Origin: an uncultured Oscillospiraceae bacterium
GTDB taxonomy: Bacteria > Bacillota > Clostridia > Christensenellales > CAG-138
Direction: 5' to 3'
Assembly: GCA_964636685.1 (NCBI GenBank)
Contig: CAZWUK010000001.1
Location: 36,053 to 100,052, forward strand
Length of the DNA: 64,000 bases
The first letter of the stretch is position 1, and every line of letters begins with the position of its first letter. A program made the position numbers and the translations under genes. Shown in pieces: positions 8,765 to 43,236 of the stretch. Under the pieces are notes generated by a model, which worked only from the letters and a program-made list of their open reading frames with translations, had not been told where the DNA came from and searched no databases.

Positions 8765-8802
8765 TCCAATTCTCACCTGCTTGCTTTAAAAATAATGGAG
8801 TT

Positions 8803-16775: not shown

Positions 16776-17951
16776 TCAGCCCTCCTTCGTTTCGTCGGCA
16801 TAGCGGTAGCAGGCAACCATATGCGTCGGCGAAACATAAATTTCATGCGGGTATTCGCCGTTGCAGGCGGCTACGCACTTTTCACAGCGATCCTTAAAGT
16901 AGCAGTAGTTTGGCATATTGATCGGGTTGGGAACCTGTCCCGGAATGCTGTAAAGGCGCTCCGTGTCACGGTTGACCACGGGCTTTGACGCCATCAGACC
17001 AATCGTATAGGGATGGCACGGATTGTGGAAAACCTCCTCCGCGGTGCCCTTTTCAACAATGCGTCCGGCATACATGACCACGACGTAGTCCGCCATCTCG
17101 GCAATGACCCCCAGGTCATGCGTAATCAGCATGATGCTGGAGTTGATCTTCTCCTTGAGCGTCCGCAAAAGATCCAGAATCTGCGCCTGAATGGTAACGT
17201 CGAGCGCCGTGGTCGGCTCGTCCGCGATGATAAGCTTCGGCGAGCAGGCAAGCGCCATGGCGATCATGATGCGCTGCCGCATGCCGCCGGAAAGCTCATG
17301 CGGGTACATCTTGTAGACGCCTTGGCTGTTTGCGATACCAACCATCTCAATCATTTGGATGGTTCTCTCCCTCACCGCCTCTGCCGTCATCTTCGGGTTA
17401 TGCAGCTGAATGACCTCGTCAATCTGGTCGCCGATCAGAAATACCGGGTTGAGGCTTGTCATAGGCTCCTGAAAGATCATGGACGCCTTGCTGCCGCGCA
17501 CCGTCTGGATCACTTCAGTGGGCGTTTTGGCAATGTCAATCACCTTTTCGCCGGTGTCGAAGCGAATCGCTCCCTCGACAATCTGGCCCTGCGGACGCTG
17601 CACCAGCTGCATCAGCGAAAGACTCATGACGGATTTTCCGCAGCCCGATTCGCCGACGACGCCGACGGTCTTCCCGCGCGGCACTTCGAATGTCACGCCG
17701 TCCACCGCCTTTACCGTCCCGATGTCGGTAAAAAAGTAGGTGTGCAGATTATCAAACTCCACCACGTTGTCCGGATTCTTCATGGTCGTTACGTATTCGG
17801 ATTCCGGAACGTTCTTGCGGTTGCGCTGCTTCTCAATGGCATTGGTAATCTTCCGATTTTTCCGGGAGATACTTGCCGATTCGCGGCGGGAGATATAGTT
17901 CTTTTTGTTTGCGGCGCTCTTTGCCGCAACCTTCATGATATGCTTTTCCAT
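16776..17951 (-). CDS. Oligopeptide/dipeptide ABC transporter ATP-binding protein (OppD-like) with a ~55-aa basic N-terminal extension
   Basis: Walker [28 protein letters not shown], and a C-terminal Cys-rich tail. The ATG lies 4 nt after the oppC-like stop, so the extension appears genuine. Confidence 0.85.
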
Positions 17952-17955
17952 GCCG

Positions 17956-19700
17956 TTACCTCTTCATCTTCGGGTCGAATGCGTCACGCAGACCGTCGCC
18001 CACGAAGTTAAACCCAAGCACGGTCAACAGGATCAGAAGACCCGCCGGGATCCACATGAACCAGTAATTGGTCATAACATGCGCGTCGGACGCTACGTTT
18101 ATGATGCTTCCCCAGGACGCCAGCGGATATTTCACGCCAAGTCCAAGGAAGCCCAGCGTTGCCTCCGTGATAATGATGCTGCCAAGTCCCGCAGTCGCCT
18201 GAACGATCAACAGCGGCATGACATTGGGCACCAGATGCCGGAAGATTCTCCGGCTTGTACGAATACCCGTCGCTTCCGTCGCAATCATGAAATCCTGTTC
18301 ACGCAGCGTCAGGATCTGTCCACGCACCACGCGCGCAACGCCGGTCCAGCCCAATACGCCGAGAACAAACATCAAGAGGAAAATACGCGCTTTGGGCGAA
18401 ACCTCCAGCGTATCCATAACCGAGCCTAAAATAATGACCATCGGGTAGAACGGAATGCTGTTGAACAGGTCTACAAAGCGCATCAGCGCCGTATCGACCC
18501 AGCCTCCGAAATAACCGGAAATGCCGCCGATGATGATGCCGATGAACAGCTCGATAAAGATGACCACGAAGCCGACCATCAGCGAAACCTGACCGCCATA
18601 CATCAGACGCGTCATGTTGTCCATGCCGTTATTGTCCAATCCCAGCAGATGCTTTGCGGACGGCGTTTCATACATGCGAATCAATTCCGTGTAGGACTCC
18701 GTCTTAACAGTATAGGTTTTGTTGACGCGCACCAGCGTATACTCAACGCTTTCCCCGTCCGCCGATGGATAATCGAAGCGTCCCTGCCGGTCGGCAATCG
18801 CCTGACGTACCATCGCCTTAAAGTCCACGGGCAGGAAAATCGACGTATCCAGCGGATTGACGATAATATCGGATACCTCCGCAAACTCTGCGCCGGAAGC
18901 GTCCAGAATGGTTTCGTTTTCGCCTTCGTAGCTGATCGTATACTTCGCGCCGTCCGCCGTGAAGCTCTTTTCATTCTTGAGAAGCGCAGTCTCGGCCGCG
19001 AGACGGAACGCGTAAGACGACACAAGCGCGCCGTTCTCCTGCGCGTAAGCGTCAAAAACATTCAGTGTGGCGATGGCAATTTCCTGTGTGCTGCAAATCT
19101 TTTGCAGCTTGCCGTTGGACTGAATGAAAAACTCTTTTTCGCCAGCCGTAAAGAATTGTTCGCCGGCGGCCAGCGCGGCTTCAAAAGCCGTCTTGAGCTC
19201 CTCTGTCAGCGGAACAGACGCGTCGATCTGCTTGTATTTGCCAAGCATGATCTCATAGATCGGCTCCATTTTGAAAATCCGATAGAAATTTTCCGATTCC
19301 GCCAGATAGCTGTAGGCAGCGCTGCCGGATTCAAATACGCTCTCGCCCTTGCCCTTTGCGAGCATAAACTTGGCTCGCGCGCCGGAGTCAAACGTTTCCC
19401 CGTCCTTGACGGTGTAGCGCAGTTCCTCGTTATAAATCGCGCTCGCATAGTCCTTTGGCATTAAGCTCTGTCCCTTGAAAACCTGCGTCTGGCCATAGGG
19501 CGAAAACAGAACGCCGACAAACGCAAACAGGAACATTACGATCAGGATCCCAAGACCGATGATCGCCAGCTTATTGCGGATAAAGCGTTTGAATACCAGC
19601 ATGCCGGGAGAGAGCACCTTTACGCGGCGCGCATCGTCCAGCGCCATCTGCTCTTGGTCATGCGACTGCGGTTCCATGTTCTCATTCAAATATTTACGCA
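17956..19700 (-). CDS. ABC transporter permease (OppC-like) with a ~290-aa extracytoplasmic insertion after TM1
   Basis: The C-terminal ~270 aa form a typical BPD_transp_1 permease (EATLGFLGLG...). 581 aa from MRKYLNE (GGAGG 5 nt upstream; the track start is TTG). Confidence 0.85.
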
Positions 19701-19712
19701 TGGGTACCTCCG

Positions 19713-20702
19713 TCAATTCACTCTGACGCGCGGATCAACGACGGCATACATGATGTCTGCCAGCATCAGCGACAGCTGCGTCAGGATGATTAAAAATGTC
19801 GTATAGAACATGGCGAACGGAATATCGCCGCGAATCATCGCGTCATAGGAGATATAGCCGATGCCGGGGATCTGGAACAGCGTTTCCGTAATCAGCGCGC
19901 CGCCAAACATCGACGGCAGCAGATAGCTCATATAGGTGACGAGCGGAATGAGCGTGTTGCGGAACGCGTGCTTGTTAATCACGACCTTCTCGGGAAGCCC
20001 CTTGGCGCGCGCGGTACGGATATAGTCCGCGCTCAGCACCTCCAGCATGTTGGTGCGCGTATAACGCATCAATCCGCCGATGGAAAGCATCATCAGTGTG
20101 ATGCAGGGCAGCACCAGATGGTTGCCGTAATCCAATATTTGCTGGAAAGAATTCATGGACGAATGGAAGCGTCCCGTCAATCCATACAAATCAAACCATC
20201 CGAGCTTGATCGAGAAGATATATTTCAAAATAGTAGCCAAAAAGAAAGTTGGCAGAGATATGCCCATCAACGCAAATACCGTGACAGCATAGTCCGTCTT
20301 GGAGTACTGTTTTCTGGCTGCCAGAATGCCCAAAGGAATGGCGATCACCACTTCTACCAGCAGTGTCACAATGTTCATCAGCACAGACCAGCCGATGACC
20401 TGATTGAATTTCTGCGTCACGGGAATGCCATACTGCCAGGACTCGCCGAAGTCGCCCTGAATGGCATTGCCGACCCACTTGAAAAAGCCGGGAATAATCC
20501 CAATATCCAGTCCGTAGACTGCGTTCAATTGCTCCATCCACTCCTGAAACGTTTTGTTGCTGGCAGGGTTAGATGCTCTTTGTCTTGCAATTGTCTCCAC
20601 ATAGGAGGAAGGAAGGCAGCGAATGACAGCATAAACGATCATCGCGCCGAAAAACGTGATGAACAAGCCCAATAACAGCCTTCTGATAACAAATTTTCGC
20701 AT
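19713..20702 (-). CDS. ABC transporter permease (OppB-like)
   Basis: 329 aa with MRKFVIRRLL N-terminus, YIRTARAKGL EAA-loop motif and 6 hydrophobic segments. Confidence 0.9.
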   Translation of the reverse strand: MRKFVIRRLLLGLFITFFGAMIVYAVIRCLPSSYVETIARQRASNPASNKTFQEWMEQLNAVYGLDIGIIPGFFKWVGNAIQGDFGESWQYGIPVTQKFNQVIGWSVLMNIVTLLVEVVIAIPLGILAARKQYSKTDYAVTVFALMGISLPTFFLATILKYIFSIKLGWFDLYGLTGRFHSSMNSFQQILDYGNHLVLPCITLMMLSIGGLMRYTRTNMLEVLSADYIRTARAKGLPEKVVINKHAFRNTLIPLVTYMSYLLPSMFGGALITETLFQIPGIGYISYDAMIRGDIPFAMFYTTFLIILTQLSLMLADIMYAVVDPRVRVN

Positions 20703-20758
20703 ATGCGATCCCTCTTTCTACCGTCGTACGCCATCAAGTTACACTGTAACCAAATCAT

Positions 20759-20797
20759 GAAAAAGGTTGTGCACCCACCCGAGGGCGGGTGCACAAC
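20759..20797 (-). terminator. Intra-operon hairpin/attenuating terminator after the binding-protein gene
   Basis: GTTGTGCACCCGCCC-tc-GGGTGGGTGCACAAC followed by CTTTTTC on the minus strand, 38 nt after the SBP stop. This is a common device for raising the SBP:permease ratio. Confidence 0.7.
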
Positions 20798-20835
20798 GGT
20801 TTCCTATTGGTTGAGTTTTACCTGCTTGGCAGAGC

Positions 20836-23292
20836 TTAGTTCATTTCCAGCAGTTCGATGTCGTGCATCCAGCCCCAGAAGGTTGTGATGTCCGGCGTCA
20901 GCGTGTCAAGGTTGATACGCTCCGTGCTGAAGACGATGCAGTTCTGACGCTGATAGGTCGGGAGTTCCACGGCCCAATCGGCAATGATGTCGAGGCACTG
21001 CTTGTAAACGCTCTTGCGGTAGCTCTGATCGTCGCTTGCGCGCGCATCCACGATCAGCTGATCCAGCTCTGCGGAACGGATGTGGTAGTGGTTCGAATCG
21101 GAACCGCCTTCGCCCACAACTCCGGAGCTATGGTAGACCTGGTACATATCAGGATCGATAGTGGCGCCCCAAGCGGCAGTCCACAGTTCCTGCGTGCCTG
21201 CGTCCAGAGCATCCCAGAGGATGGCGGAGTCGGACAGGTCGTTGATCTTGAAGTCGATGCCGATGGCTGTGAATGCTGCCTGTGCATCGGTCAGGATTGC
21301 AAATGCCGGATGGTCGCCGGTGCCGTCGCCCGGGATCATGCACTCGTAGCTGAGCTTTGCGCCATCGGGAGCTGCGGTGACCTTACCGTCTGCCACCGTG
21401 TAACCGGCTGCTTCAAAGAAGGTCAGCGCCGCGGCGGAGGCCGCTGCGTACTTCTCGTCTGCGCTCATGCCGGAGGTGTAGACTTCTGCACCGGTCGCGT
21501 CCACAGAGTACGCATTGCGGTAGCCTTCATCCGTCGGCTGGGGTGCTGCCCAAGAAGTGTTGGAGATGGGGTACTGAATGACGGAAGCAGCTTCGCCGTA
21601 GTAGGAGTCGATCGCGGTGTCACGATAGGCTGCCAGAACGGTCATGAGCGCTTTTCTCAGTGCCTTGGAAGCGTCGGAATCCGGTGCGCCCGCCACGTTG
21701 ACGGTGTCCGCATTGATGCCGATGTAGCCGTAACCGAGGTTATCGACCTTGCTGGTGGTGATCACGTCGCCCGTGATTTCGCCGTTGGAGTTGTAGCTTG
21801 CAACTTCTTCAAAGCGAGTACGGGAGCCGGTCATTTCGCCAGCGTCTGCGGTACCGGTCTGTACTGCGGAAGCAACTTCGCTATTGACGGTTTCCTTGAA
21901 CTGGATTTCCTTGATCTTCGGGCAACCCTTGTAATAGTTTTCGTTGGCTTCGTAGTAGATGACCTTATTCTCGTATTTGATGAACTTATAGGCGCCGGCG
22001 CCCAGAGGCTGGGTCGTCACAGCCTGCTGGCTGGACAGATCGCCAAAGTCAAAGCCATACTTGCCATTCTCGTAATCGTACTTTTCGGTGCTGCCGTAGT
22101 AGTGCATCGGCGCAACTTCGATACCGAGGATGGAGTAAACAGCGGGAGCGCTGTAACCGGTGGTCGTAATGGTCACAGTGTAATTATCGACCTTCTTGAT
22201 GCCGGTGATGGAAGCAACACCCGCACCCGCCATGGACTCGTCCTGCGGGCCATAGGTGGAGATGAACTGTGCATCCGCAGCCGCATGGACGTCCGTACCA
22301 TTGGCGGATTCCTTCGCGGCATAGGCGTCTACGCTGCCTTCGTAGGCCAGATAGGTTTCGTTGTAGTAATCTTCGATGGTCGGGAAGGTGGTGGTCAGAT
22401 CCCAGGTTTTGCCGGAATAAGCACCGGTGAAGGTGACGCCGTCATCGGCAAAGCCGCCGAAGCCCCACATAATCATACCAAACGCAATCTGCATGCCTTC
22501 GCTGGCATTGATCTCGTCTGCGGTATGACCAAAGTTGTCCGGGCCGTAATCGATGTAGTTATTCAGGACGTAGGAAACGATGCCCTGAACGTCTGCCATC
22601 CAGTTCGTCTTCACCAGTTCCCAATAACCGGTCTGCTGTGCTTCGGTCCAACCGTCTGCTTCGCTCCAGACATGGTCGGCGCCTGCCGCAAAGATATCTT
22701 TTGCCATCTGGGCATACTTTGCATAGACGTCGTCGCTGGTCTGGGTACGATAGTTGCGCAGGCCGACGATGTCATAGGAGGACAGCGTGGAGGAGCCTGC
22801 GTAGGAAGGATCCAGCAGCGTATACAGCGAGAAGATGATATCGTCCGCGGTGACGGGCACGCCATCGGAGAAGAGCAGGTCTTCGCGCAGCTTTGCGGTA
22901 TAGGTCGTCGTATCGGACGCCGCATCATACTCTACCTTCGTGTCGGCTGCGCCGGTGTAGAGATAATCCGTACCATTGTAGGAACGGGTCTCGCCCTCGA
23001 TCGCATTGAACACGATGCCGCCGACACGGTCGGTGGTGAGCATGGAAATCTGCGTCATCGCTTCAGCATCCACATCGTAGCCGGTATCGGCATAGAAGGG
23101 GCTGAATTTCTGAGAGAAGGGGCTATAAGCAACAACCAAGGGCGTGTTGTTCTCCTCGGGCGCCGTCGTGGGTTCCGTCGTGGCGACGTCGGTTCCCTTG
23201 TCGGAATCCGTTGCAGTCTTGCAGCCTGCAAATGCCATAACGAGCATACATGCAGCCATGAGAACTGCCAGTAACTTACTGAACTTCTTCAT
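20836..23292 (-). CDS. ABC transporter substrate-binding lipoprotein, family 5 (peptide/nickel type), unusually large (818 aa)
   Basis: Lipobox MAFAGC, Thr/Glu-rich linker and SBP_bac_5-like core motifs. The 803-aa plus-strand ORF opposite it is an antisense artefact. Confidence 0.85.
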   Translation of the reverse strand: MKKFSKLLAVLMAACMLVMAFAGCKTATDSDKGTDVATTEPTTAPEENNTPLVVAYSPFSQKFSPFYADTGYDVDAEAMTQISMLTTDRVGGIVFNAIEGETRSYNGTDYLYTGAADTKVEYDAASDTTTYTAKLREDLLFSDGVPVTADDIIFSLYTLLDPSYAGSSTLSSYDIVGLRNYRTQTSDDVYAKYAQMAKDIFAAGADHVWSEADGWTEAQQTGYWELVKTNWMADVQGIVSYVLNNYIDYGPDNFGHTADEINASEGMQIAFGMIMWGFGGFADDGVTFTGAYSGKTWDLTTTFPTIEDYYNETYLAYEGSVDAYAAKESANGTDVHAAADAQFISTYGPQDESMAGAGVASITGIKKVDNYTVTITTTGYSAPAVYSILGIEVAPMHYYGSTEKYDYENGKYGFDFGDLSSQQAVTTQPLGAGAYKFIKYENKVIYYEANENYYKGCPKIKEIQFKETVNSEVASAVQTGTADAGEMTGSRTRFEEVASYNSNGEITGDVITTSKVDNLGYGYIGINADTVNVAGAPDSDASKALRKALMTVLAAYRDTAIDSYYGEAASVIQYPISNTSWAAPQPTDEGYRNAYSVDATGAEVYTSGMSADEKYAAASAAALTFFEAAGYTVADGKVTAAPDGAKLSYECMIPGDGTGDHPAFAILTDAQAAFTAIGIDFKINDLSDSAILWDALDAGTQELWTAAWGATIDPDMYQVYHSSGVVGEGGSDSNHYHIRSAELDQLIVDARASDDQSYRKSVYKQCLDIIADWAVELPTYQRQNCIVFSTERINLDTLTPDITTFWGWMHDIELLEMN

Positions 23293-25414: not shown

Positions 25415-26530
25415 ATGTTTGATCCGAGAATCAAAAAGCTGGCCAGCGGTCTGGTCAATTTCTCCTGCGGTCTGAAAAAGAGCGAAAACATCCTCATTGA
25501 AAGCATCGGCGGCAATGAAGATCTGACGCGTGCGCTCATCAAAGAGGTCTATGCAGTCGGCGGCAATCCCTTCCTGTGGCTTGGCGACAAGGCGATGGAT
25601 CGCGAGCTTGTCCTGGGCTGCAACGTGGAGCAGCTCAAGCAGCACGCCGCATGGGACGCGGCCGTCATGAGCGGCATGGACGCCTATATCGGCGTGCGTG
25701 GCGGCAGCAATTCCAGTGAGATGGCGGACGTGCCCTCCGACAAGATGAACGACTACATGAAGTACTATTGGACGCCGGTGCACGGTCAGATTCGCGTGCC
25801 CAAAACCAAGTGGGTCATTCTCCGTTACCCGAGTCCGTCCATGGCGCAGCTTGCGGACATGAGCACCGAAGCGTTTGAAGATTACTATTTCAACGTCTGC
25901 TGCCTCGACTACTCCAAGATGGACAAGGCGATGGACAGCCTGAAGGCGCTGATGGAACGCACGGACAAGGTGCGTTTGGTTGGCCCCGGCACCGATCTGC
26001 ATTTTTCCATCAAGGATCTGCCCGCCATCAAGTGCGCGGGTCACATGAACATTCCCGACGGCGAAATCTACACCGCGCCCGTCAAAAACAGCGTCAACGG
26101 TACGATCTCCTACAATACCCCGTCGCTGGAAAACGGCTTCACCTATACGGACATCCGCTTCACCTTCAAGGACGGCAGGATCGTGGAAGCAACCTCCAAC
26201 GACAACGAGCGCATCAACGCGCAGCTTGACATCGACGAAGGCGCGCGCTACGTCGGCGAATTTGCCATCGGCGTCAATCCCTACATCAACACGCCCATGA
26301 AGGATACGCTCTTTGACGAGAAGATCGCCGGCTCCATCCACTTTACGCCCGGCTCCTGCTATGACGATTGCTACAACGGCAATAAGTCGAGCCAGCACTG
26401 GGATCTTGTGCTGATTCAAACGCCGGAATACGGCGGCGGCGAGATCTATTTCGACGATGTGCTCATCCGCAAAAACGGCCGGTTCGTCCTGCCGGAATTG
26501 GATTGTCTGAATCCTGAAAACCTGAAATAA
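25415..26530 (+). CDS. Aminopeptidase, M29 family (AmpS/PepS-like)
   Basis: 371 aa, with the overall pattern MFDPRIKKLA...NIPDGEIYTAP...GEFAIGVNP...DEKIAGSIHFTPG typical of M29 thermophilic metalloaminopeptidases. Confidence 0.85.
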   Translation: MFDPRIKKLASGLVNFSCGLKKSENILIESIGGNEDLTRALIKEVYAVGGNPFLWLGDKAMDRELVLGCNVEQLKQHAAWDAAVMSGMDAYIGVRGGSNSSEMADVPSDKMNDYMKYYWTPVHGQIRVPKTKWVILRYPSPSMAQLADMSTEAFEDYYFNVCCLDYSKMDKAMDSLKALMERTDKVRLVGPGTDLHFSIKDLPAIKCAGHMNIPDGEIYTAPVKNSVNGTISYNTPSLENGFTYTDIRFTFKDGRIVEATSNDNERINAQLDIDEGARYVGEFAIGVNPYINTPMKDTLFDEKIAGSIHFTPGSCYDDCYNGNKSSQHWDLVLIQTPEYGGGEIYFDDVLIRKNGRFVLPELDCLNPENLK

Positions 26531-26553
26531 GAAAACCGTCCCGCTTAAATTAA

Positions 26554-26584
26554 GGGGCTGTAGCTTTTCCTTTGCTACAGCCCC
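26554..26584. terminator. Bidirectional terminator between the convergent M29 aminopeptidase and AAC(3)-like genes
   Basis: GGGGCTGTAGC-ttttccttt-GCTACAGCCCC followed by TTGTTTG. Confidence 0.75.
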
Positions 26585-26605
26585 TTGTTTGTCGCAAGCG
26601 CTGCG

Positions 26606-27499
26606 TTATCGCTTGCAGATTTTTTCCGGATCCACACATGCCCAGATGGCGGTATCCTCGCGGCCCGCGCCGTCCACATAGTCCCGATATGCCTCTTTTC
26701 CGTCCGGGAGAACCACGAGCTTCTCATCCTGACAGAAAATCCACGGATCAAGCGGATATCGATACAGGATGGATTCGATCAGATCCCGCATGTGAAATAC
26801 GCGGATTACGGCATTGCCGATCGTGGTGATCTGCACCTTGCCCGCCTGCTCCAGCCACAGCCCCAGCTTGTTGAAATCATGCGGGTGCTCATAGTAATCG
26901 CCGGACAGGGTTGGCTTTGGCTGATAGTCCGTCATGATGCGATCCTCGAGCGTACCGTCGGGAAGCCGGAGCTTGACGCTTCGCTCGATCGTGTGCCGAT
27001 CGGGTACCTGCAACAAGTATTCGCCAAAATGATGGCTGGTGGAGTTGACGTAGGTCACGCCGGCAAGCACGACCTTGGTGTCAAGCGCGAGCATTCTGCC
27101 AAAAATGCTGCGCATGTCAAACACCGGAAGATATGGGTCAACCTCCGTCAAAAGCTTTGCGGATTTCCCGATCGCTGAAAAGCTGTGGCGGTACGCGATG
27201 CTGCGCTTTGCCCCCGGCAAACGCCGCACGGCTTCGCTGATGGCGCCCATTTCGGAAGGATCGTTTTGGGGATCGATCACGGGAGTCTCCTCAAGCTCAT
27301 GGATAAAGCAAAAAGCGGGCGCAACCGCCGTTCCCGCTTCCTTTCCAACGGCTTCACAAAGCGCCTTGGCAATCGTAACCCCGCCGTCCTCTACATAGCC
27401 AAACGGACGCAGCGCCGACTGGATCAGCACCGTATCTCCGGGAACGATCCCCGCATCTTGAAATCCCTGCAACGCATCCATATAGCGCACCTGCTGCAT
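26606..27499 (-). CDS. AAC(3)/Antibiotic_NAT-fold acetyltransferase homolog (divergent)
   Basis: 297 aa: GIVPGDTVLIQSAL....GGVTIAKALCEAVGKEAGT...P.F; MGAISEAVRRLPGAKRS..YRHSFSAIGKSA; VVLAGVTYVNSTSHHFGE. This is the same block order as aminoglycoside 3-N-acetyltransferases/YokD, but HSS is replaced by QSA and there is a C-terminal extension. Confidence 0.7.
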   Translation of the reverse strand: MQQVRYMDALQGFQDAGIVPGDTVLIQSALRPFGYVEDGGVTIAKALCEAVGKEAGTAVAPAFCFIHELEETPVIDPQNDPSEMGAISEAVRRLPGAKRSIAYRHSFSAIGKSAKLLTEVDPYLPVFDMRSIFGRMLALDTKVVLAGVTYVNSTSHHFGEYLLQVPDRHTIERSVKLRLPDGTLEDRIMTDYQPKPTLSGDYYEHPHDFNKLGLWLEQAGKVQITTIGNAVIRVFHMRDLIESILYRYPLDPWIFCQDEKLVVLPDGKEAYRDYVDGAGREDTAIWACVDPEKICKR

Positions 27500-27540
27500 T
27501 TCTTCTTCTCCTAATTTTACAATACCGTTCTATTATGCAG

Positions 27541-27569
27541 GATGTTGTCGCCTGGCGCAATACAGAAAA
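27541..27569 (-). promoter_or_regulatory. Candidate own promoter of the AAC(3)-like gene (TTGCGC-17-CATAAT)
   Basis: Reverse complement of 27564-27569 and 27541-27546, 17-nt spacing, downstream of the kamA terminator. Confidence 0.4.
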
Positions 27570-27610
27570 AAACCGTTCTTTTGCGACGCGCGATTGGTTT
27601 TGATAGGCAG

Positions 27611-27645
27611 CAAAAAGGTCTGCCGAAAAACGTCAGCAGACCTTT
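27611..27645 (-). terminator. Intrinsic terminator after the KamA-family gene
   Basis: AAAGGTCTGC-tgacgtttttcg-GCAGACCTTT followed by TTGCTGCC on the minus strand, 32 nt after the stop; the run of Ts is formed by the last three stem bases plus two more (GCAGACCTTTTTG). Confidence 0.75.
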
Positions 27646-27676
27646 GTCGCGTTCTGACAGGTTGTCTGGGGTGCAG

Positions 27677-28792
27677 TCAGGCGTCGCCGTCCTGCAACGG
27701 CTGCGGATAGCGGAACTGCTTCCCTTCATAGTTTTCGAGTACGACCTCGCGATCGTTTTTCTCGATCACATAATTGTAATTGATCGGAACCTTGCCGCCG
27801 CCGCCCGGCGCGTCGATAACGTACTTCGGCACAGCGTACCCGGAAATATTACCGGTGAGCGCGTGCATGATATGAATCCCCGTCTCCACCGTCGTGCGGA
27901 AATGGCTGATGCCGCGCGACAGATCGCACTGATAGAGATAGTACGGACGCACCCGCATATGCACCAGCCCCAGCAGCAGCCGTTTCATCGTCTCGGGATC
28001 GTCGTTGATCCCCTTGAGCAGCACGCTCTGGTTGCCCAGCGGAATCCCCGCGTCCACGATCGCCGCACAGGCTCGCCGGCTGTCGGGGGTCAGCTCATTG
28101 GGGTGGTTAAAATGCGTGTTGATCCAGATCGGCTGGTACTTTTTGAGCATCTCCAGCAATTCCTCGGTGATGCGCATCGGCAGCACCACCGGTACCCGCG
28201 TTCCGATACGGATAATGTCCACATGTGGAATCTCGCGGATGGAGGCAATGATATGCTCCAGCTTCTCCGTCCCCATCACAAGCGGATCGCCGCCGGAGAT
28301 CAGCACGTCGCGGATCTCGGTGTGCGCCCGGATATAGGCAAGCGCTGTCTGGAGACTCTTTTCCGTAATGATCCGATCCTCCTCGCCCACCACGCGCCGC
28401 CGGGTGCAATGCCGGCAGTACATCGAGCAGCGCAGCGTCACAAGAAACAGTACCCGATCCGGATAGCGATGCACAATATGCGGTACGGGGCTGTCTCCCA
28501 GCTCGTTGAGCGGATCGGAAAGATCGTTTGCACACGGCGCCGTCTCCAAAATGGACGGCACGCACTGCATGCGGATCGGATCGTTGGGATCGTCCGGGTT
28601 GATTAACGAAGCATAGTAGGGCGTGATCGCCATGCGAAAGCTTTCAAGGCATTTTGCAATGTCCGCCTTTTCGCCATCTGCCAGCGGCAGAATCTTGGAG
28701 AGCGCGTCCGCATTCGTGATGCGATGGGCAAACTGCCACTTCCAATCGTTCCAGCCCGGGTTTTCCAAAAGGCTCGTCATGCGTCCCTGCAT
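27677..28792 (-). CDS. KamA-family radical SAM aminomutase, lysine-2,3-aminomutase type, short form lacking the C-terminal zinc motif
   Basis: 371 aa with CSMYCRHC cluster motif, WNDWKWQ N-terminus, SGGDPL and NTHFNHPNE motifs. QCDLS and IDAPGGGGK retain both Asp residues that bind the lysine epsilon-amine in C. subterminale LAM (D293, D330). The protein ends before the CxCxxC motif. Confidence 0.85.
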   Translation of the reverse strand: MQGRMTSLLENPGWNDWKWQFAHRITNADALSKILPLADGEKADIAKCLESFRMAITPYYASLINPDDPNDPIRMQCVPSILETAPCANDLSDPLNELGDSPVPHIVHRYPDRVLFLVTLRCSMYCRHCTRRRVVGEEDRIITEKSLQTALAYIRAHTEIRDVLISGGDPLVMGTEKLEHIIASIREIPHVDIIRIGTRVPVVLPMRITEELLEMLKKYQPIWINTHFNHPNELTPDSRRACAAIVDAGIPLGNQSVLLKGINDDPETMKRLLLGLVHMRVRPYYLYQCDLSRGISHFRTTVETGIHIMHALTGNISGYAVPKYVIDAPGGGGKVPINYNYVIEKNDREVVLENYEGKQFRYPQPLQDGDA

Positions 28793-28804
28793 ACGATCGC
28801 CCCC

Positions 28805-29839
28805 TCAGATGCGAACGCCGCAGCGCTTTGCCGCAGCCTTCACAATCGCATAGACCAGTTCGTCGTACGCAACGCCGCAGGCCTCCGCCAGCATGGGAAA
28901 GTCGCTGTATCCCGGCGCAAGCCCCGGCAGCGGATTGATCTCGAGAAAATAGATCTTCTCCATTTCGTCCATGCGAAAATCCACCCGTGCCATGTCGCGG
29001 CAGCCCAGCGCCTGATAAACGCGCTTTGCCATACGCGTCATCTCGTCGTTCTGGGCCACGGTGAGCTTTGCCGGGCATTCATAGCGGATATACCGTGTAT
29101 AATCCTGCTTTACCGTATAGTTGTAGACCGGATATTCGCCGGGCGTACCGGCGATATACAGAATCTCCATAGGCGAAAACACGCGAATATCGCTGCCGTT
29201 TCCAAGTACGCCTACCGTAAATTCCCGTCCGCAGACAAATTCCTCCACGAGCACGGATTCACCGTACTGCGCGATGTTCTCCGCCACAAGCGCTTTGAGC
29301 TGCTCCGGCGTTTTGGCGACGCTGACGTCGGCAATGCCCTTGCTTGAGCCTTCGGCATTGGGCTTTACGATCACGGGAAAATGCAATGCCGCGCCCTTAT
29401 CCGCGGAATCTCCGGGATGGATCACGCGGGAATGCGGCGTCCTGATATGATAAGTCGACAGCAGGCGCTTTGTAAGCGCTTTGTCGAGCGCGATGCAGAG
29501 TGTCGTTTCGTCAGACCCCGTAAACGGGATGTCCATCATGTTGAGCAGTGCGGGAACCTGCGCCTCTCTGGCGCGTCCGCCATGCCCTTCGGCGATGTTG
29601 AATACAAGATCGGGACGCCGTGCGGTAAGCTGCTCCGGCAGATGGGCGTCCGCTTCGTAAACACTTGTCGAAAGCCCATGCTTTTGAAGTGCCGCCGCAA
29701 TTGCCTCCACCGTCTCCGGATTGTCATATTCCGCCTCCATGTCCCTTGTCGTGGCCGGCGCAGCCTGCTTGTGCTTGAGGTTGCATACGATGCCGACCAC
29801 GGGTGCTGCAAGTGGAACGTCGTCTGCTGTTTGCGTCAT
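28805..29839 (-). CDS. ATP-grasp ligase of the D-Ala-D-Ala-ligase family (non-canonical; not the housekeeping Ddl type)
   Basis: 344 aa: NIAEGHGGRAREAQVPALLNMMDIPFTGS, FPVIVKPNAEGSSKGI, EEFV.GREFTVGVLG, ARVDFR....YFLEINPLPGL. It lacks the N-terminal GG.S.EHEVS motif of canonical Ddl. Only 12 nt separate it from kamA. Confidence 0.8.
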   Translation of the reverse strand: MTQTADDVPLAAPVVGIVCNLKHKQAAPATTRDMEAEYDNPETVEAIAAALQKHGLSTSVYEADAHLPEQLTARRPDLVFNIAEGHGGRAREAQVPALLNMMDIPFTGSDETTLCIALDKALTKRLLSTYHIRTPHSRVIHPGDSADKGAALHFPVIVKPNAEGSSKGIADVSVAKTPEQLKALVAENIAQYGESVLVEEFVCGREFTVGVLGNGSDIRVFSPMEILYIAGTPGEYPVYNYTVKQDYTRYIRYECPAKLTVAQNDEMTRMAKRVYQALGCRDMARVDFRMDEMEKIYFLEINPLPGLAPGYSDFPMLAEACGVAYDELVYAIVKAAAKRCGVRI

Positions 29840-29883
29840 AAAAAATCACTGTCCTTTCCGCTACATTATGTGATAGCACAAAT

Positions 29884-29912
29884 GTTGTACTGCGATTTAT
29901 ACGGATTGTCAA
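29884..29912 (-). promoter_or_regulatory. Candidate promoter of the ATP-grasp/KamA operon (TTGACA-17-TACAAC)
   Basis: Reverse complement of 29907-29912 is TTGACA and of 29884-29889 is TACAAC; 17-nt spacing. Confidence 0.45.
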
Positions 29913-30179
29913 CAAAAGAATTTTATGCGGCATGCACGCCGCGCCATGCTCGAAAGCATCCGCGCACGGCATCGTTTGCCGCCTGTTTGTTCTCTCACGC
30001 CCTACGCCGCGCCGTGGCGTGTTTGGCGCCTGCGCACGGTGAATTTGTTCTGTTCGGCGTAAAGCGTCGCACAGCCGATATGACGCGGTTGCATTCCATC
30101 GCGTGCCTGTGTGATCTAATCACTTACAGCCGCCGCCGCAGCCGTTATACTATCATCATCCAAGGAGGTGTAAATTGTT

Positions 30180-30422
30180 ATGGAACATCAACAGAATAAG
30201 CATACCCTGCTGCGTTATCTGCCCGTAATCATCGGCTGCATTGTCGGCGCAATCGGCGGATTTCTTTACTACCGCTATGTAGGCTGCGCGACCGGCGCCT
30301 GCATGATTACCGGAAATCCCTATATCTCCACCATCTACGGAAGCGTATTTGGCGCGCTGCTCGGCTCGCTTTTCGTACGCTCCGGAAAAAAGAGCGTGGA
30401 TAGCGAGACCGTCGAGAGCTAA
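30180..30422 (+). CDS. Small membrane protein (2 TM, Gly-rich), unknown function
   Basis: 80 aa: LRYLPVIIGCIVGAIGGFLYYRYVGCATGACMITGNPYISTIYGSVFGALLGSLF. AAGGAGG lies upstream, and a TTACAG-16-TATACT promoter-like element sits at 30125-30152. Confidence 0.6.
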   Translation: MEHQQNKHTLLRYLPVIIGCIVGAIGGFLYYRYVGCATGACMITGNPYISTIYGSVFGALLGSLFVRSGKKSVDSETVES

Positions 30423-30494
30423 ATCCCTTCTGTCAGGAGGCGCGTCTGAGGATACGCCCGTTTCCCGCAAGCAAAAGCCGCAGCATGAAAAGAA

Positions 30495-30530
30495 CAGGGT
30501 ATCGCCGTACTGTACCACGGTGATACCCTG
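30495..30530. terminator. Hairpin terminator between the convergent small membrane protein gene and the ABC permease operon
   Basis: CAGGGTATCgCCGT-actgtacc-ACGGtGATACCCTG followed by CATCATTTTG. Confidence 0.65.
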
Positions 30531-30605
30531 CATCATTTTGTCTTGGCAAACAGCGCGTTCGTCCGCGCGTCCGTTCTCACAATTGGAGCGCCCGTTTCCC
30601 GGCAA

Positions 30606-31529
30606 TCAACCGCGGATCGCGGGCAGCTTCTTTTTTGCCATCAGGTTTTTCAACCCGATCATCAACAACACGAGGATGGTCGCAACATATGGCAGCGTCA
30701 GAACGATCTGCGACGGTATGCCGATATTTTGCAAGCCCAGCGATAATGCGTCCGTATAGGCAAACAGCAGGCAGGACAGCGCGGACATGAGCGGATTCCC
30801 ACGGCCGACCAGAATCGCCGCGACGACGAGAAACCCGCGCCCGGCCGTCATGTTTTCGCTGAAGATGGACGTGCCGCCAAGCGGCAGCACCGCGCCCGCC
30901 AGTCCGCAGAACGCGCCGGTGATGAGCAGCGAGATCCACCGGTATTTCAAGATGTTGGTTCCGGCGGTCTGCGCCGCCTTCGGATTCATGCCAACACCGC
31001 GGAGGCGCAATCCGAACGCGGTCTTATACATGATGATCCACATCACGACGATTGACAACAGCGCAACATACACCAGAATGTTCTGATTGTTAAAGATGTC
31101 CCGCAGGTACGGAATCCGGTTCAGAACCGGAATGTCAAACGTCGGCAGGCTCACAAGACGCGGGTCCATGAAAGAGCCGCGCGTTTTGAACACCGAGAGC
31201 ATCATCAGCGTCGTAAAGCCCCACGCGCCAAGATTTAGCGCAATGGACACGACAATGCCGCTCGAGCCCAGGTGAAACACAAACAGCCCGAAGATCCCGC
31301 CGCAGACAAGCCCGGCGAGGATGCCGCACAGCACGCCGATATAGGGGTTTGCCGTAAGATACGTTCCATACGCGGCAAAGAACGCGGCCGTCAGCATGAA
31401 GCTTTCCAGCGCAATATTGAATACGCCGCCGCGGTCGCAGTAGCAGCCGCCCACCGTGCCGAGAATCAACGGCGTAGACAGTCGCAGCGTCGAGGCGAGA
31501 GTCGCCGTTCCAAAGAGTACGTTCAGCAT
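30606..31529 (-). CDS. ABC transporter permease (BMP/nucleoside-type, NupQ/YufQ-like)
   Basis: 307 aa, multi-TM, last gene of the BMP-type ABC operon. Overlaps the preceding permease gene by 7 nt. Confidence 0.85.
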   Translation of the reverse strand: MLNVLFGTATLASTLRLSTPLILGTVGGCYCDRGGVFNIALESFMLTAAFFAAYGTYLTANPYIGVLCGILAGLVCGGIFGLFVFHLGSSGIVVSIALNLGAWGFTTLMMLSVFKTRGSFMDPRLVSLPTFDIPVLNRIPYLRDIFNNQNILVYVALLSIVVMWIIMYKTAFGLRLRGVGMNPKAAQTAGTNILKYRWISLLITGAFCGLAGAVLPLGGTSIFSENMTAGRGFLVVAAILVGRGNPLMSALSCLLFAYTDALSLGLQNIGIPSQIVLTLPYVATILVLLMIGLKNLMAKKKLPAIRG

Positions 31530-39265: not shown

Positions 39266-39386
39266 ATAATGTAGACTTTACCAGCCACATCTCGTATAAT
39301 GCAATTGTATCGATTTATGTAGAATTGCTTGGCGTGAATTGGCGTTTTTTGAGTTGTCAAACAGTGGACGATAAAGTCTACATTAT
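39266..39386. repeat. Perfect 15-bp inverted repeat pair (39266-39280 ATAATGTAGACTTTA; 39372-39386 TAAAGTCTACATTAT) flanking a 91-bp AT-rich segment
   Basis: Direct reading of both strands; the arms are exact reverse complements. The right arm overlaps the recombinase stop codon (39383-39385) and the left arm abuts the small ORF. Confidence 0.9.
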
Positions 39387-40009
39387 TTATCACAATTCTG
39401 ATTAAAATCCGTACTGTTTTTTAATTTGCACCATCGAAGAAACGTGTCATGCGTCACAGCGAGCTGCTTTGCCGCACTGCGCGCCGAAATTTTTCCTGCG
39501 CTCCACAACGGATACAGCTCCCGAAATTGCGGCGGAATCGCCTTGGTCGGCGCGCCGAACCGCACACCGCGCAGCTTTGCCGCGGCAATGCCCTCCGCCT
39601 GTCGCTTTTTGATATTGCGACGCTCTGTTTCCGCAACATAGCTCAATATCTGCAATACAAGATCCGATATGAACATTCCGGTCAGATCTTCGTCTTTTTT
39701 GGCTCGCGTATCCAGCAGCGGCATATCCAAAACCACGATATTGGCCTTCTTTTCCTTTGTAATGATCCGCCATTGCTCCAATATCTCCGAATAATTGCGG
39801 CCATGCCGGTCGATGGCATGCACCACCACGGTGTCGTTCCGCCGAAGCCGCAGCAGCATGGCGATGTAGGCGGGACGGTCAAAATTTTTCCCGCTCATCT
39901 TATCCAGATAGATCCGATCCATCTTTTCCTCGAATCGCGCCAATGCGATTTGCTGCCGCTGTTCGTTTTGATCGCGTGAAGAAACGCGCATATATCCATA
40001 GCACGCCAT
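39383..40009 (-). CDS. Serine recombinase (resolvase/invertase family, small type with C-terminal HTH)
   Basis: MACYGYMRVSSRDQNEQRQ catalytic-Ser motif, VVVHAIDRHGRN, AETERRNIKKRQAEGI, and a C-terminal HTH (ISARSAAKQLAVTHDTFLRW). GGAGGA lies 4 nt upstream of the ATG at 40009. Confidence 0.9.
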   Translation of the reverse strand: MACYGYMRVSSRDQNEQRQQIALARFEEKMDRIYLDKMSGKNFDRPAYIAMLLRLRRNDTVVVHAIDRHGRNYSEILEQWRIITKEKKANIVVLDMPLLDTRAKKDEDLTGMFISDLVLQILSYVAETERRNIKKRQAEGIAAAKLRGVRFGAPTKAIPPQFRELYPLWSAGKISARSAAKQLAVTHDTFLRWCKLKNSTDFNQNCDK

Positions 40010-40101
40010 AAGCTCCTCCAATCGTTTTTCCCTCATTGTAAGAACAAACGGGCAGCGAGCGCCAATGGTAAATCCTGGAATTTAGATTCCAAATATTTAT
40101 C

Positions 40102-41522: not shown

Positions 41523-42734
41523 TTACCAGAGATCCCAACCGGAAACGCCGCATTGTCCGTAAGCGTCCTGTCCGACGGCAACCACTGTGCCGTCAGCGCG
41601 CAGTCCCACGGTATGGGTGATCCCGCACGCAACGGCGACGATCTCCGTCCAGCCCGAAACCTCGCATTTTCCACCGGTCGCGTCCCCGCAGGCAACGCAC
41701 GTTCCGTCCGCTCTTAAACCCACGGTATGCGTCATCTCCGTATCGACCGATACGACGTCCGTCCATGCGGCTGTATCAAGCTGTCCATCGTCGTTCTCGC
41801 CCACGGCAAGCACGCCGCCGTCCGTCGTGACCGCCACCGTATGGGTATAGCCTGCCGCAGCCGTGACAATCGCGTTCCACCCGGCAGGTTTTTTTTGATT
41901 GTGTGCGTAGCGGCCGCAGATACGCACCGTCCCGCCCGCTGTTACGCCCACCGTATGATACTGTCCGCAGGACACGGAAGCAATATCGCGCCAGGCGCGC
42001 ACATCCAGCTGATTGGAGCGGTTATCGCCGCAGCCTACAACGCGGCCCTCCGCCGTCACGCCGACTGTATGCGCGCCGCCTGCCGCAATGGCGACAATAT
42101 TCTCCCAATCGGATACGTTGCATTGTCCGTAAAGATTATCGCCGGTCGCCACACACGTGCCGTCTTTGCGCAGTCCCACGGTATGCCCGCCGCCTGCCGC
42201 GACCGCAACAATGTCCGTCCAGCCGGATACATCGCATCTGCCGTCGTCGTTTTTCCCGACAGCGCGCACGGTTCCGTCTGTCATCACCGCTGCGGTATGC
42301 CTAGCGCCGGCCGCAATCCGAGTACCCACATAGGCGCGGCAGGCCACGTTGCCAAGCATTGTCTGCGCCGGAAGCCACGGTGCGAATCCGTTCACCTGCG
42401 CGGACAAGCGCAGCCGTCGCGCATCGCTGTCAAGATATCCGGCAAGCGCCGCGTACGCATTTCCGGCGCCGTCGATGTCCCCTGCTTGTTCCAGTGTCAC
42501 CGCCGCTTCATACGCCAGATACCGTTCGTCAACAGGTGTTGCCGTGGGCAATGCGTCCGTTGGGGATGCGGTCAACTCTGCCTGCGGCTGCGTTTGCTCC
42601 GGGGCAGTGCTTTTCTTGCATCCGCCCGCAAGCAACACTGCAACCACAGCGACTGCTGCCAGAGTTGCACACAACCAAATGGTATGCTGCATCCCGTATT
42701 CTGTCCAATTGCATTGCACTTGTTCTTCTGTCAT
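41523..42734 (-). CDS. RCC1-repeat (beta-propeller) lipoprotein
   Basis: 403 aa from MTEEQ (AAGGA 7 nt upstream, 10 nt after the upstream stop). It has signal/lipobox VLLAGGC and about 7 tandem ~37-aa repeats of the form G..HTVG...DG.V.A.G.N..GQC.VS.W..IVA.A. Confidence 0.85.
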   Translation of the reverse strand: MTEEQVQCNWTEYGMQHTIWLCATLAAVAVVAVLLAGGCKKSTAPEQTQPQAELTASPTDALPTATPVDERYLAYEAAVTLEQAGDIDGAGNAYAALAGYLDSDARRLRLSAQVNGFAPWLPAQTMLGNVACRAYVGTRIAAGARHTAAVMTDGTVRAVGKNDDGRCDVSGWTDIVAVAAGGGHTVGLRKDGTCVATGDNLYGQCNVSDWENIVAIAAGGAHTVGVTAEGRVVGCGDNRSNQLDVRAWRDIASVSCGQYHTVGVTAGGTVRICGRYAHNQKKPAGWNAIVTAAAGYTHTVAVTTDGGVLAVGENDDGQLDTAAWTDVVSVDTEMTHTVGLRADGTCVACGDATGGKCEVSGWTEIVAVACGITHTVGLRADGTVVAVGQDAYGQCGVSGWDLW

Positions 42735-42744
42735 CAATTTTTCC

Positions 42745-43236
42745 TTATCCCGCGATCTCATATATGTTGATTCCGTTTTGCTCTGTCGTAATAAACACCG
42801 TTTGTTCCTCCGCCGCAATCTGAAAAACGCCGTCCTCCCGATCCGGGAACCGAAAATCATAGCCTAAGTGTTCCGGGTAGCCCGTCACCGCGCACACGAT
42901 CCGTCCGTCTTGGACAAACACCAGTTGCAGCATACCCTCGCTCACGGTCTGCGGCAGTCTTGCCGATGAAACGCCCATGTACGAAGCCATGTGCTGCCGA
43001 TCCATGTACGGGGCAAAGGCATATGCGCTCTCCCACGAAAAATCCGTCAGCGTATTGAGCGTCACGGTTTCCTGCGTCTGCCGTGCGGCGGCGGCTTTGG
43101 AAAACGACCGCGCGTGGATCGACGCGGCGGAAAAAGGCCCGAGCAGCAGCCACGATACGCAGAGCAGCACAAATGCCGCGCCCGCGATCACAAGCGCCGC
43201 CCGTGTCTGTTCCGTCAGTCGAAAAAACAACTTCAT
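42745..43236 (-). CDS. Membrane-anchored hypothetical protein co-transcribed with the RCC1-repeat lipoprotein
   Basis: About 163 aa from MKLFFRL with an N-terminal TM (ALVIAGAAFVLLCVSWLLLGPF). The track start at 43254 is TTG. Confidence 0.5.
   Translation of the reverse strand: MKLFFRLTEQTRAALVIAGAAFVLLCVSWLLLGPFSAASIHARSFSKAAAARQTQETVTLNTLTDFSWESAYAFAPYMDRQHMASYMGVSSARLPQTVSEGMLQLVFVQDGRIVCAVTGYPEHLGYDFRFPDREDGVFQIAAEEQTVFITTEQNGINIYEIAG

Follow-up and report, generated by a model that had tools for sequence, protein, structure and literature searches.

Organization of the Locus

The analyzed DNA is a stretch of 64,000 nucleotides (nt) from an uncultured Oscillospiraceae bacterium (contig CAZWUK010000001.1, positions 36,053 to 100,052); this whole stretch is called the window below. 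On its minus strand, a gene for a Ddl-like ATP-grasp ligase is followed by a gene for KamA, a lysine 2,3-aminomutase (LAM), and further downstream by a gene for an AAC(3)-like acetyltransferase (Table 1). In our reading, to which we assign a probability of about 0.6, the first two genes encode a pathway that would convert lysine to beta-lysine and then ligate beta-lysine into a peptide in an ATP-dependent manner, the AAC(3)-like gene being unrelated to it.

The locus is composed of a self-contained two-gene operon (ATP-grasp, then KamA) and a separate downstream gene. This anatomy follows from the short gap between the first two genes, the promoter-like site in front of them, the terminator after KamA, and the fact that the AAC(3)-like gene has a ribosome-binding site and a promoter-like region of its own. 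The three genes lie exactly where an earlier note on this DNA, made from the letters alone, had placed them, and the 12-nt spacer between the ATP-grasp and KamA genes, also described there, contains the GAGGGGG ribosome-binding site. The spacer indicates that the two genes are probably co-transcribed; their translation is possibly coupled as well. The terminator that the note had called clean is a strong one, with a predicted hairpin of -24.7 kcal/mol (27645-27611; z = -4.24; 0 of 200 shuffles equally stable). The proposed promoter fared less well: the TTGACA-17-TACAAC sequence is present, but its -10 element is weak, ending in C, and a scan for consensus promoters did not list the site. It is a plausible promoter of the operon and is treated here as a candidate only.

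Control by a riboswitch or another leader RNA was considered and rejected, as no Rfam match with E ≤ 1 was found at window positions 26000-31000, the operon leader included, and no Rfam element was found upstream of the module in eight diverse related loci. A role in anti-phage defence was also rejected, since PADLOC produced no match for the ATP-grasp, KamA, or AAC(3)-like protein.

Table 1. Positions of the genes and signals of the locus in the window
Feature	Position	Strand	Description
ATP-grasp ligase gene, operon gene 1	28805-29839	minus	344 aa; Ddl family, distinct clade
KamA gene, operon gene 2	27677-28792	minus	371 aa; short-form lysine 2,3-aminomutase of KamA/AblA type, radical S-adenosylmethionine (SAM) and pyridoxal phosphate (PLP)
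AAC(3)-like gene, neighbour outside the module	26606-27499	minus	297 aa; Antibiotic_NAT fold
Intergenic spacer with KamA ribosome-binding site GAGGGGG	28793-28804	minus	12 nt; sequence read directly
Candidate sigma-70-type promoter of the operon	29884-29912	minus	TTGACA 29912-29907, 17-nt spacer, TACAAC 29889-29884; found by eye
Shine-Dalgarno AAGGA of the ATP-grasp gene	29856-29852	minus	read from the sequence
Intrinsic terminator after KamA	27611-27645	minus	RNA fold; stem, then a run of five U

Substrate and Form of the KamA Aminomutase

The substrate of KamA is almost certainly L-lysine, an assignment about as secure as a sequence allows. The protein scores 528.4 bits with the lysine 2,3-aminomutase equivalog model TIGR03820, barely above the cut-off of 525.4, and falls below the cut-offs of the models for glutamate aminomutase (466 vs. 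650 bits), arginine aminomutase (415 vs. 600), and EpmB (252.5 vs. 369.3). It aligns without gaps to the LAM of Clostridium subterminale (CsLAM; PDB 2A5H) over residues 14-369, that is, 356 residues (E = 4e-145), and retains the cluster motif CSMYCRHC, D293 (YQCDLS), D330, and the PLP lysine K337 (DAPGGGGK). Because the TIGR03820 cut-off is passed and the gapless match to 2A5H includes the substrate, PLP, and cluster residues, conversion of lysine to beta-lysine is the predicted role of the protein. The lysine type had been proposed from the lysine-binding residues; these are all kept, as are the PLP and Fe-S residues, and the protein stays under the cut-off of the glutamate model.

The window KamA is a short form. 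Its chain stops at about CsLAM residue 374, approximately 45 C-terminal residues short; the CxCxxC zinc motif is absent, and the cysteine at position 268 (CsLAM numbering) is replaced by aspartate. These features recur in a set of 61 pair-type KamAs, consisting of the window protein and 60 others that adjoin ATP-grasp relatives in other genomes. C125, C129, C132, R134, S169, D293, D330, and K337 are invariant in all 61 sequences, none of which has C268 or the C-terminal CxCxxC (position 268 is occupied by D, N, S, T, or R). Their chains extend 0-24 residues beyond the position that matches CsLAM residue 369. The ligase-linked KamAs are consistently of the short form, and the zinc site formed by C268 and CxCxxC belongs to the long-form KamAs rather than to the whole family. 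The distinct short subfamily suggested in the earlier note is thus borne out by the lack of the zinc site, the early end, and a separate clade in the phylogenetic tree (see below).

A Ddl-Like Ligase With a Changed Substrate Site

The first gene of the operon encodes a protein that matches the Pfam domain Dala_Dala_lig_C (E = 3e-42). Its best score with the NCBIfam Ddl models is 203.2 bits vs. a cut-off of 243 (NF002378), and it is far below the cut-offs of the other Ddl and Van models. By sequence, the Ddl enzymes are its only close solved relatives, with approximately 28% identity. An AlphaFold model of the protein (predicted local distance difference test, pLDDT, 86.9; predicted template-modelling score, pTM, 0.87) retrieves DdlB and DdlA as the top PDB matches in Foldseek, with E of about 1e-28 and TM scores of 0.76-0.86 over the full length, and the three-domain layout of Ddl is present in this predicted fold. 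The full-length Ddl-like fold of the model suggests a small-molecule ligase.

The protein was aligned by hhalign with a sequence of Escherichia coli DdlB that checked out in length and landmark residues. Equivalents of Ddl K97, K144, S150, K215, R255, D257, E270, N272, and S281 are retained. Three residues of the DdlB substrate site are changed, H63 to E84, Y216 to Q245, and L282 to D313. In all 80 ATP-grasp relatives collected below, E84 and D313 are invariant, together with D33, E37, D39, R89, R91, and K167, and the Y216 position is never tyrosine, being occupied by Q, K, R, or T. The N-terminal GGxSxE of Ddl is replaced in this clade by an invariant AE(Y/F)D, which in the window protein is AEYD; further motifs of the clade are FNIAEGxxGRxREA, KPNAEGSSKG, and PGLAPGYSD. 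The extra acidic residues E84 and D313 at the amino-acid sites could fit a diamino substrate.

Judged by these features, the ATP-grasp is probably not the housekeeping Ddl. The view of it as a non-canonical member of the Ddl family holds, given scores below every Ddl cut-off, the replaced GGxSxE, and the altered substrate-site residues. Whether a canonical ddl exists elsewhere, a question raised in the same note, is answered in part: no second Ddl was found within the 64-kb window, but in a related locus (L028; loci of our surveys are given by such numbers) a canonical Ddl lies 6 kb from the module, and therefore the module ligase is not the only Ddl of that genome.

Conservation of the Gene Pair

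The distribution of the ATP-grasp/KamA pair was analyzed in two directions. In the forward survey, one genome per GTDB species was subjected to a pattern scan with an ATP-grasp alignment as the query, and the best 80 of at least 594 relatives were retained (45-62% identity). Three of these 80 loci end too soon. Of the 77 decidable ones, 63 have the KamA gene as the immediate downstream neighbour of the ATP-grasp gene, in the same orientation, with a median gap of about 9 nt. In the reverse survey, metagenome contigs were scanned with a KamA alignment, and 80 loci were kept (53-81% identity). The ligase gene was observed upstream of all seven short KamAs having upstream room (60-81% identity) and at none of approximately 69 long KamAs, the majority of which have CxCxxC. 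In a neighbour-joining tree, 67 ligase-linked KamAs and two KamAs whose upstream region is lost at a contig end form a single clade, with CsLAM and all long forms outside it.

The pair is carried by Clostridia, among them Christensenellaceae, Oscillospiraceae, and Lachnospiraceae, as well as by Erysipelotrichaceae, Coriobacteriia, and Bacteroidales, including the cultured species Oscillibacter valericigenes, Papillibacter cinnamivorans, and Caproicibacter fermentans. Since it is found across Clostridia, Erysipelotrichaceae, Coriobacteriia, and Bacteroidales, the pairing is not restricted to close relatives, and the operon seen in the window by the earlier note is one instance of a general arrangement. 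The genes flanking the pair in the 80 loci vary by lineage. No third widely shared gene was detected, as clustering of 974 open reading frames (ORFs) from these loci yielded only the two module genes; other shared ORF clusters reflect synteny within a single family, e.g., Pst/PhoU/PhoR, dnaG, and sigA in Christensenellaceae. Together, the surveys and the tree point to an old, specific association rather than a local accident.

None of the usual partners of KamA was found, as had been noticed at the outset. We scanned with Pfam the window ORFs within approximately 10 kb and 30 other, mostly larger, ORFs. Among the scanned ORFs there were no kamDE, kdd, or kce genes, no EpmA-type (tRNA-synt_2) gene, and no GNAT domains, although a small GNAT could be encoded by one of about a dozen smaller ORFs beyond these. 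Lysine-fermentation genes do not recur in the 80 related loci either.

Some relatives of the ligase are larger. The Kofleriaceae and one Deltaproteobacteria metagenome-assembled genome (MAG) (L074-L079; P0085, P0107, P0111) have tandem double ATP-grasps of approximately 590-850 residues with no KamA nearby, and in Kofleriaceae these genes adjoin a gene for a tetratricopeptide-repeat (TPR) lipoprotein. Fusion partners were considered as a source of functional clues and set aside, as the relatives of 592-598 residues turned out to be merely such tandem double ATP-grasps. Carriage by plasmids or phages was set aside too: the sole plasmid match, from Sinorhizobium, is 35% identical and has no KamA nearby.

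Recurring Neighbours and a Second Link to KamA

A different architecture is observed in two metagenomic loci (L150, 3875-7848; L162, 3818-7758), with the gene order long KamA, ATP-grasp, ATP-grasp-GNAT fusion. The ATP-grasp of these loci is 35% identical to the window ligase and shares with it the FNIAEG..GR.REA, AE(F/Y)D, and SD motifs. This array connects the ligase subfamily with beta-lysine for a second time, independently of the two-gene operon. Its copy in L162 is directly preceded by a gene for an aspartokinase with ACT domains. Dedicated aspartokinases are found in ectoine clusters, and Ngg, a GNAT/ATP-grasp enzyme, takes part in the synthesis of the acetylated dipeptide osmolyte N-acetylglutaminylglutamine amide (NAGGN). 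By analogy to these two systems and to N-epsilon-acetyl-beta-lysine, the array hints at an osmolyte-like, possibly acetylated, beta-lysine peptide.

Several neighbours of the pair recur on a smaller scale. An S51 peptidase (dipeptidase E/cyanophycinase family) belongs to the operon in two Coriobacteriia loci (L052, L071) and in L055. In the same three loci (L071, 5988-10156; L055, 8001-12098; L052), a protein of approximately 440 residues with an SGTTG-type motif, adenylate-forming-like and without a Pfam match, is encoded tightly next to the pair. In Peptostreptococcaceae MAGs, a Peptidase_S58 gene of the DmpA/beta-aminopeptidase family (L072, 1251-2441; L080, 8987-10081) is convergent to a KamA-less ATP-grasp gene at a distance of 9-15 nt. 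The window contains an M29 aminopeptidase gene, L025 a MatE exporter gene, and the Christensenellaceae loci a GNAT gene convergent to the module. The recurring peptidases would be compatible, if weakly, with the turnover of a small peptide product.

Other features of the surroundings are recorded here for completeness. The window contains an operon for an Opp/Dpp-type peptide ATP-binding cassette (ABC) transporter (16776-23292, minus strand) with an unusually long SBP_bac_5 binding protein of 818 residues; it is separated by approximately 3 kb from two genes flanking the AAC(3)-like gene, which encode the M29 aminopeptidase and an MFS_3 transporter. A serine recombinase (resolvase) gene (39383-40036, minus strand) is located upstream of the module operon at a distance of about 9.5 kb, and another module-bearing contig has a resolvase at its edge (L082, 1-435); these resolvases may mark a mobile or variable region. 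The window also encodes a 445-residue protein with at least five RCC1 repeats, uncommon in bacteria (41523-42860, minus strand). A type III glutamine synthetase (6644-8776) and an AllH-like gene for an oxamate carbamoyltransferase subunit (838-1797), both on the minus strand, belong to nitrogen metabolism and are unlinked to the module. In O. valericigenes, an SpF59/ldcC RNA (Rfam, 69 bits, gathering score 37; L044, 3696-3751, minus strand) is found approximately 4.3 kb upstream of the module; the name of this RNA family suggests a link to ldcC genes.

Proposed Pathway and Its Weak Points

The first step of the proposed pathway, strongly suggested by the features of KamA, would be the conversion of free L-lysine to beta-lysine (3,6-diaminohexanoate) by the short radical-SAM/PLP enzyme. 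In the second step, the Ddl-like ATP-grasp would activate a carboxylate as an acyl phosphate and join it to an amine, beta-lysine being one of the two substrates. This step is proposed because the catalytic set of Ddl and the residues for the nucleophile carboxylate (equivalents of K215, S281, and R255) are kept, and the acidic E84 and D313 are gained. Such a reaction would yield a dipeptide containing beta-lysine or a short homo-oligomer, e.g., beta-lysyl-beta-lysine. Speculatively, the parallels of N-epsilon-acetyl-beta-lysine and NAGGN suggest that this product serves as a compatible solute or as a solute rich in nitrogen; alternatively, it might be a building block that is attached to the cell envelope. 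In the scheme of the earlier note, beta-lysine was made, ligated, and possibly N-acetylated; the gene pair supports the first two of these, whereas the role assigned there to the AAC(3)-like gene has to be abandoned (see below).

Several observations weigh against this pathway. Everything after the formation of beta-lysine, that is, the product, the co-substrate, and the ligase activity itself, we infer from sequence features. In 14 of the 77 decidable loci, including the tandem double ATP-grasps of Kofleriaceae, the ATP-grasp has no KamA nearby. The neighbours in these loci are a HAD hydrolase, a hydrogenase, an HtrA-like protease, UDP-galactopyranose mutase, AMP-binding enzymes, and an integrase, with no recurrent partner gene among them. 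The KamA-less loci have the same active-site signature, and therefore the acidic residues are no proof of beta-lysine binding; the ligase substrate in these genomes may be different. The equivalent of Ddl E15 has no confident placement in the alignment. The peptidase and acetyltransferase neighbours are weak evidence, because the related loci with them are few and the families are common. Finally, no riboswitch or regulator pointing to a physiological role emerged from the Rfam scans of the window and eight related loci.

Alternative Explanations

The AAC(3)-like enzyme had been put forward as a possible third member of the pathway, which would N-acetylate beta-lysine or the ligated product. 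In the window, the gene adjoins the pair and shares its orientation. The protein matches PF02522 (E = 2e-35), and in an alignment with AAC(3)-IVa it retains the catalytic His/Glu motif and has QSA in place of HSS, so that its description as a divergent AAC(3)/Antibiotic_NAT-fold protein was accurate; its score with the AAC(3) resistance-family model NF033082, 82 bits, is below the cut-off of 270. Acetyltransferases of other folds do recur near related modules. Against its membership, a homologue of this protein is present within 8 kb in none of the 80 related ATP-grasp loci, and its nearest homologues (72-78% identical) have unrelated surroundings, such as genes for arabinose and for sugar transport, that include neither KamA nor the ATP-grasp. 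Given these two observations and the strong terminator and separate promoter-like site that lie between the genes, the AAC(3)-like gene is a chance neighbour outside the module, and its participation is very unlikely. An acetylation step in general is conceivable, as other acetyltransferases recur near related modules, namely the convergent GNAT and the L150/L162 fusion.

Another explanation dispenses with the pathway altogether: the ATP-grasp would be a second D-Ala-D-Ala or D-Ala-D-X ligase, the adjacent KamA serving lysine catabolism or the formation of free beta-lysine, and the adjacency would have no meaning. Ddl is indeed the nearest characterized family in both sequence and fold, and public annotations sometimes label members of the clade "D-alanine--D-alanine ligase". 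This is nevertheless highly improbable, considering the adjacency to KamA in 63 of 77 loci from several phyla with variable flanks, its confirmation in the reverse survey, scores under every Ddl cut-off, the clade-wide replacement of H63, Y216, and L282, the co-existing canonical Ddl in L028, and the lack of lysine-fermentation genes among the scanned window ORFs. A cell-wall role is easier to entertain and still unlikely. Here, the ATP-grasp would add beta-lysine to the epsilon-amine of Lys or diaminopimelate (DAP), or to the free carboxylate of D-Glu or DAP, of a cell-wall precursor, in the manner of Aslfm/Racfm. Bellais and co-workers are said to have described in 2006 this Enterococcus operon of a D-aspartate ligase and an aspartate racemase, and it has the same two-gene design, in which an ATP-grasp ligase accompanies the enzyme that makes an unusual amino acid. 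Moreover, the window ligase descends from a cell-wall enzyme, Ddl; the module adjoins a D-Ala-D-Ala carboxypeptidase gene in three loci (L057, L066, and L067), and in L068-L070 it has a glycosyltransferase-like gene nearby (both read from the sequence). However, to our knowledge no peptidoglycan containing beta-lysine has been reported, the flanking genes are not mur or fts and differ between loci, and the retained nucleophile-carboxylate residues are a better fit to a free amino acid than to a UDP-MurNAc-peptide.

Protein beta-lysylation is the remaining alternative. The ATP-grasp would place beta-lysine on a protein lysine, e.g., Lys32 of elongation factor P (EF-P), as a non-homologous replacement of EpmA, or, like RimK, on a protein C-terminus. 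In gamma-proteobacteria, the KamA-family protein EpmB, which is also a short form, feeds the beta-lysylation of EF-P. No EpmA-type gene was found among the window ORFs scanned, and in five Christensenellaceae loci efp is approximately 6 kb from the module, the EF-P loop being KPGKG. This nearness, however, occurs within the housekeeping block of one family (phoR, dnaG, sigA), with efp on the opposite strand; the module is scattered over genomes in variable contexts, which is not what would be expected of a core translation-factor modification. Along its whole length, the fold resembles that of Ddl rather than that of RimK, which also leaves the RimK-style option of the earlier note, attachment to a protein carboxylate, without support. 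We consider protein beta-lysylation scarcely credible. In the loci concerned (L003, L005, L006, L007, and L013), the conserved block runs from pst/phoU/phoR through the module to a GNAT gene, dnaG, and sigA, and efp is at approximately 15.5-17 kb in each locus, encoding a KPGKGAAF loop like that of Bacillus subtilis. The most daring version of the proposal would still have the ligase put beta-lysine on a macromolecule, either peptidoglycan or, replacing EpmA, EF-P; both attachments are unlikely and without support so far.

Implications of the Proposed Two-Gene Pathway

Known fates of beta-lysine are fermentation, N-acetylation to an osmolyte, and modification of EF-P, with antibiotic pathways as a fourth. 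If the two-gene pathway from lysine to a beta-lysine peptide is real, it would add a further fate, one shared by hundreds of gut and digester species in the Clostridia, Coriobacteriia, and Bacteroidales. It would also assign a function to a large clade of proteins whose current labels are "D-alanine--D-alanine ligase" and "ATP-grasp domain-containing protein", allowing these annotations to be corrected, and would provide a natural beta-amino-acid ligase for enzymology. The possible new metabolite could be an osmolyte, a storage compound, or an envelope decoration. No description of the KamA/ATP-grasp pair was found in the full-text literature, a search in which most subscription journals were outside the coverage and the term "2,3-aminomutase" was awkward to use. 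A broader claim is more tentative, at odds slightly short of even: the pair would represent an undescribed route, widespread among anaerobes of the gut, rumen, and digesters, to a new beta-lysine metabolite, and the ligase would found a clade of beta-amino-acid ligases with at least two independent couplings to KamA, one upstream of short KamAs and the other, with the ATP-grasp-GNAT fusion, downstream of long KamAs.

Comparison With Known Systems

The window KamA resembles C. subterminale LAM and methanogen AblA in having CxxxCxxC, K337, R134, S169, D293, and D330, and differs from the former in lacking the zinc site and approximately 45 C-terminal residues and in belonging to its own clade. 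Unlike the KamAs of lysine fermentation and those partnered with AblB, it has an ATP-grasp as its partner. The ligase, in turn, is similar to DdlA, DdlB, and VanA in the full-length fold and in the ATP/Mg and catalytic residues. The differences from Ddl are the AE(Y/F)D N-terminus, the changed substrate site, and the KamA partner in place of mur and fts genes.

Each of the systems closest in design shares only a part of this arrangement. As in the AblA/AblB system for N-epsilon-acetyl-beta-lysine, a two-gene operon combines an AblA-type aminomutase with the amine-capping enzyme that it feeds; however, the second enzyme in the window is predicted to be an ATP-dependent ligase and not an acetyl-CoA-using GNAT, the gene order is reversed, and the product must differ. 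EpmB/EpmA provides another parallel, with a short-form KamA-family enzyme coupled to ATP-dependent ligation of the beta-lysine carboxylate, but EpmA is a paralogue of class II aminoacyl-tRNA synthetases, and the window KamA scores below the EpmB cut-off. ATP-grasp ligases that join unprotected amino acids are exemplified by the D-aspartate ligase of Aslfm/Racfm and by BacD/YwfE. Aslfm/Racfm shows the same pairing of an enzyme making a non-standard amino acid with an ATP-grasp ligase, whereas both it and BacD/YwfE represent other ATP-grasp subfamilies with other substrates; we know of no use of beta-lysine by Aslfm or BacD/YwfE. Finally, the ATP-grasp-GNAT fusion beside KamA in L150 and L162 recalls Ngg in its domain pairing, and the window operon differs from both in having no GNAT.

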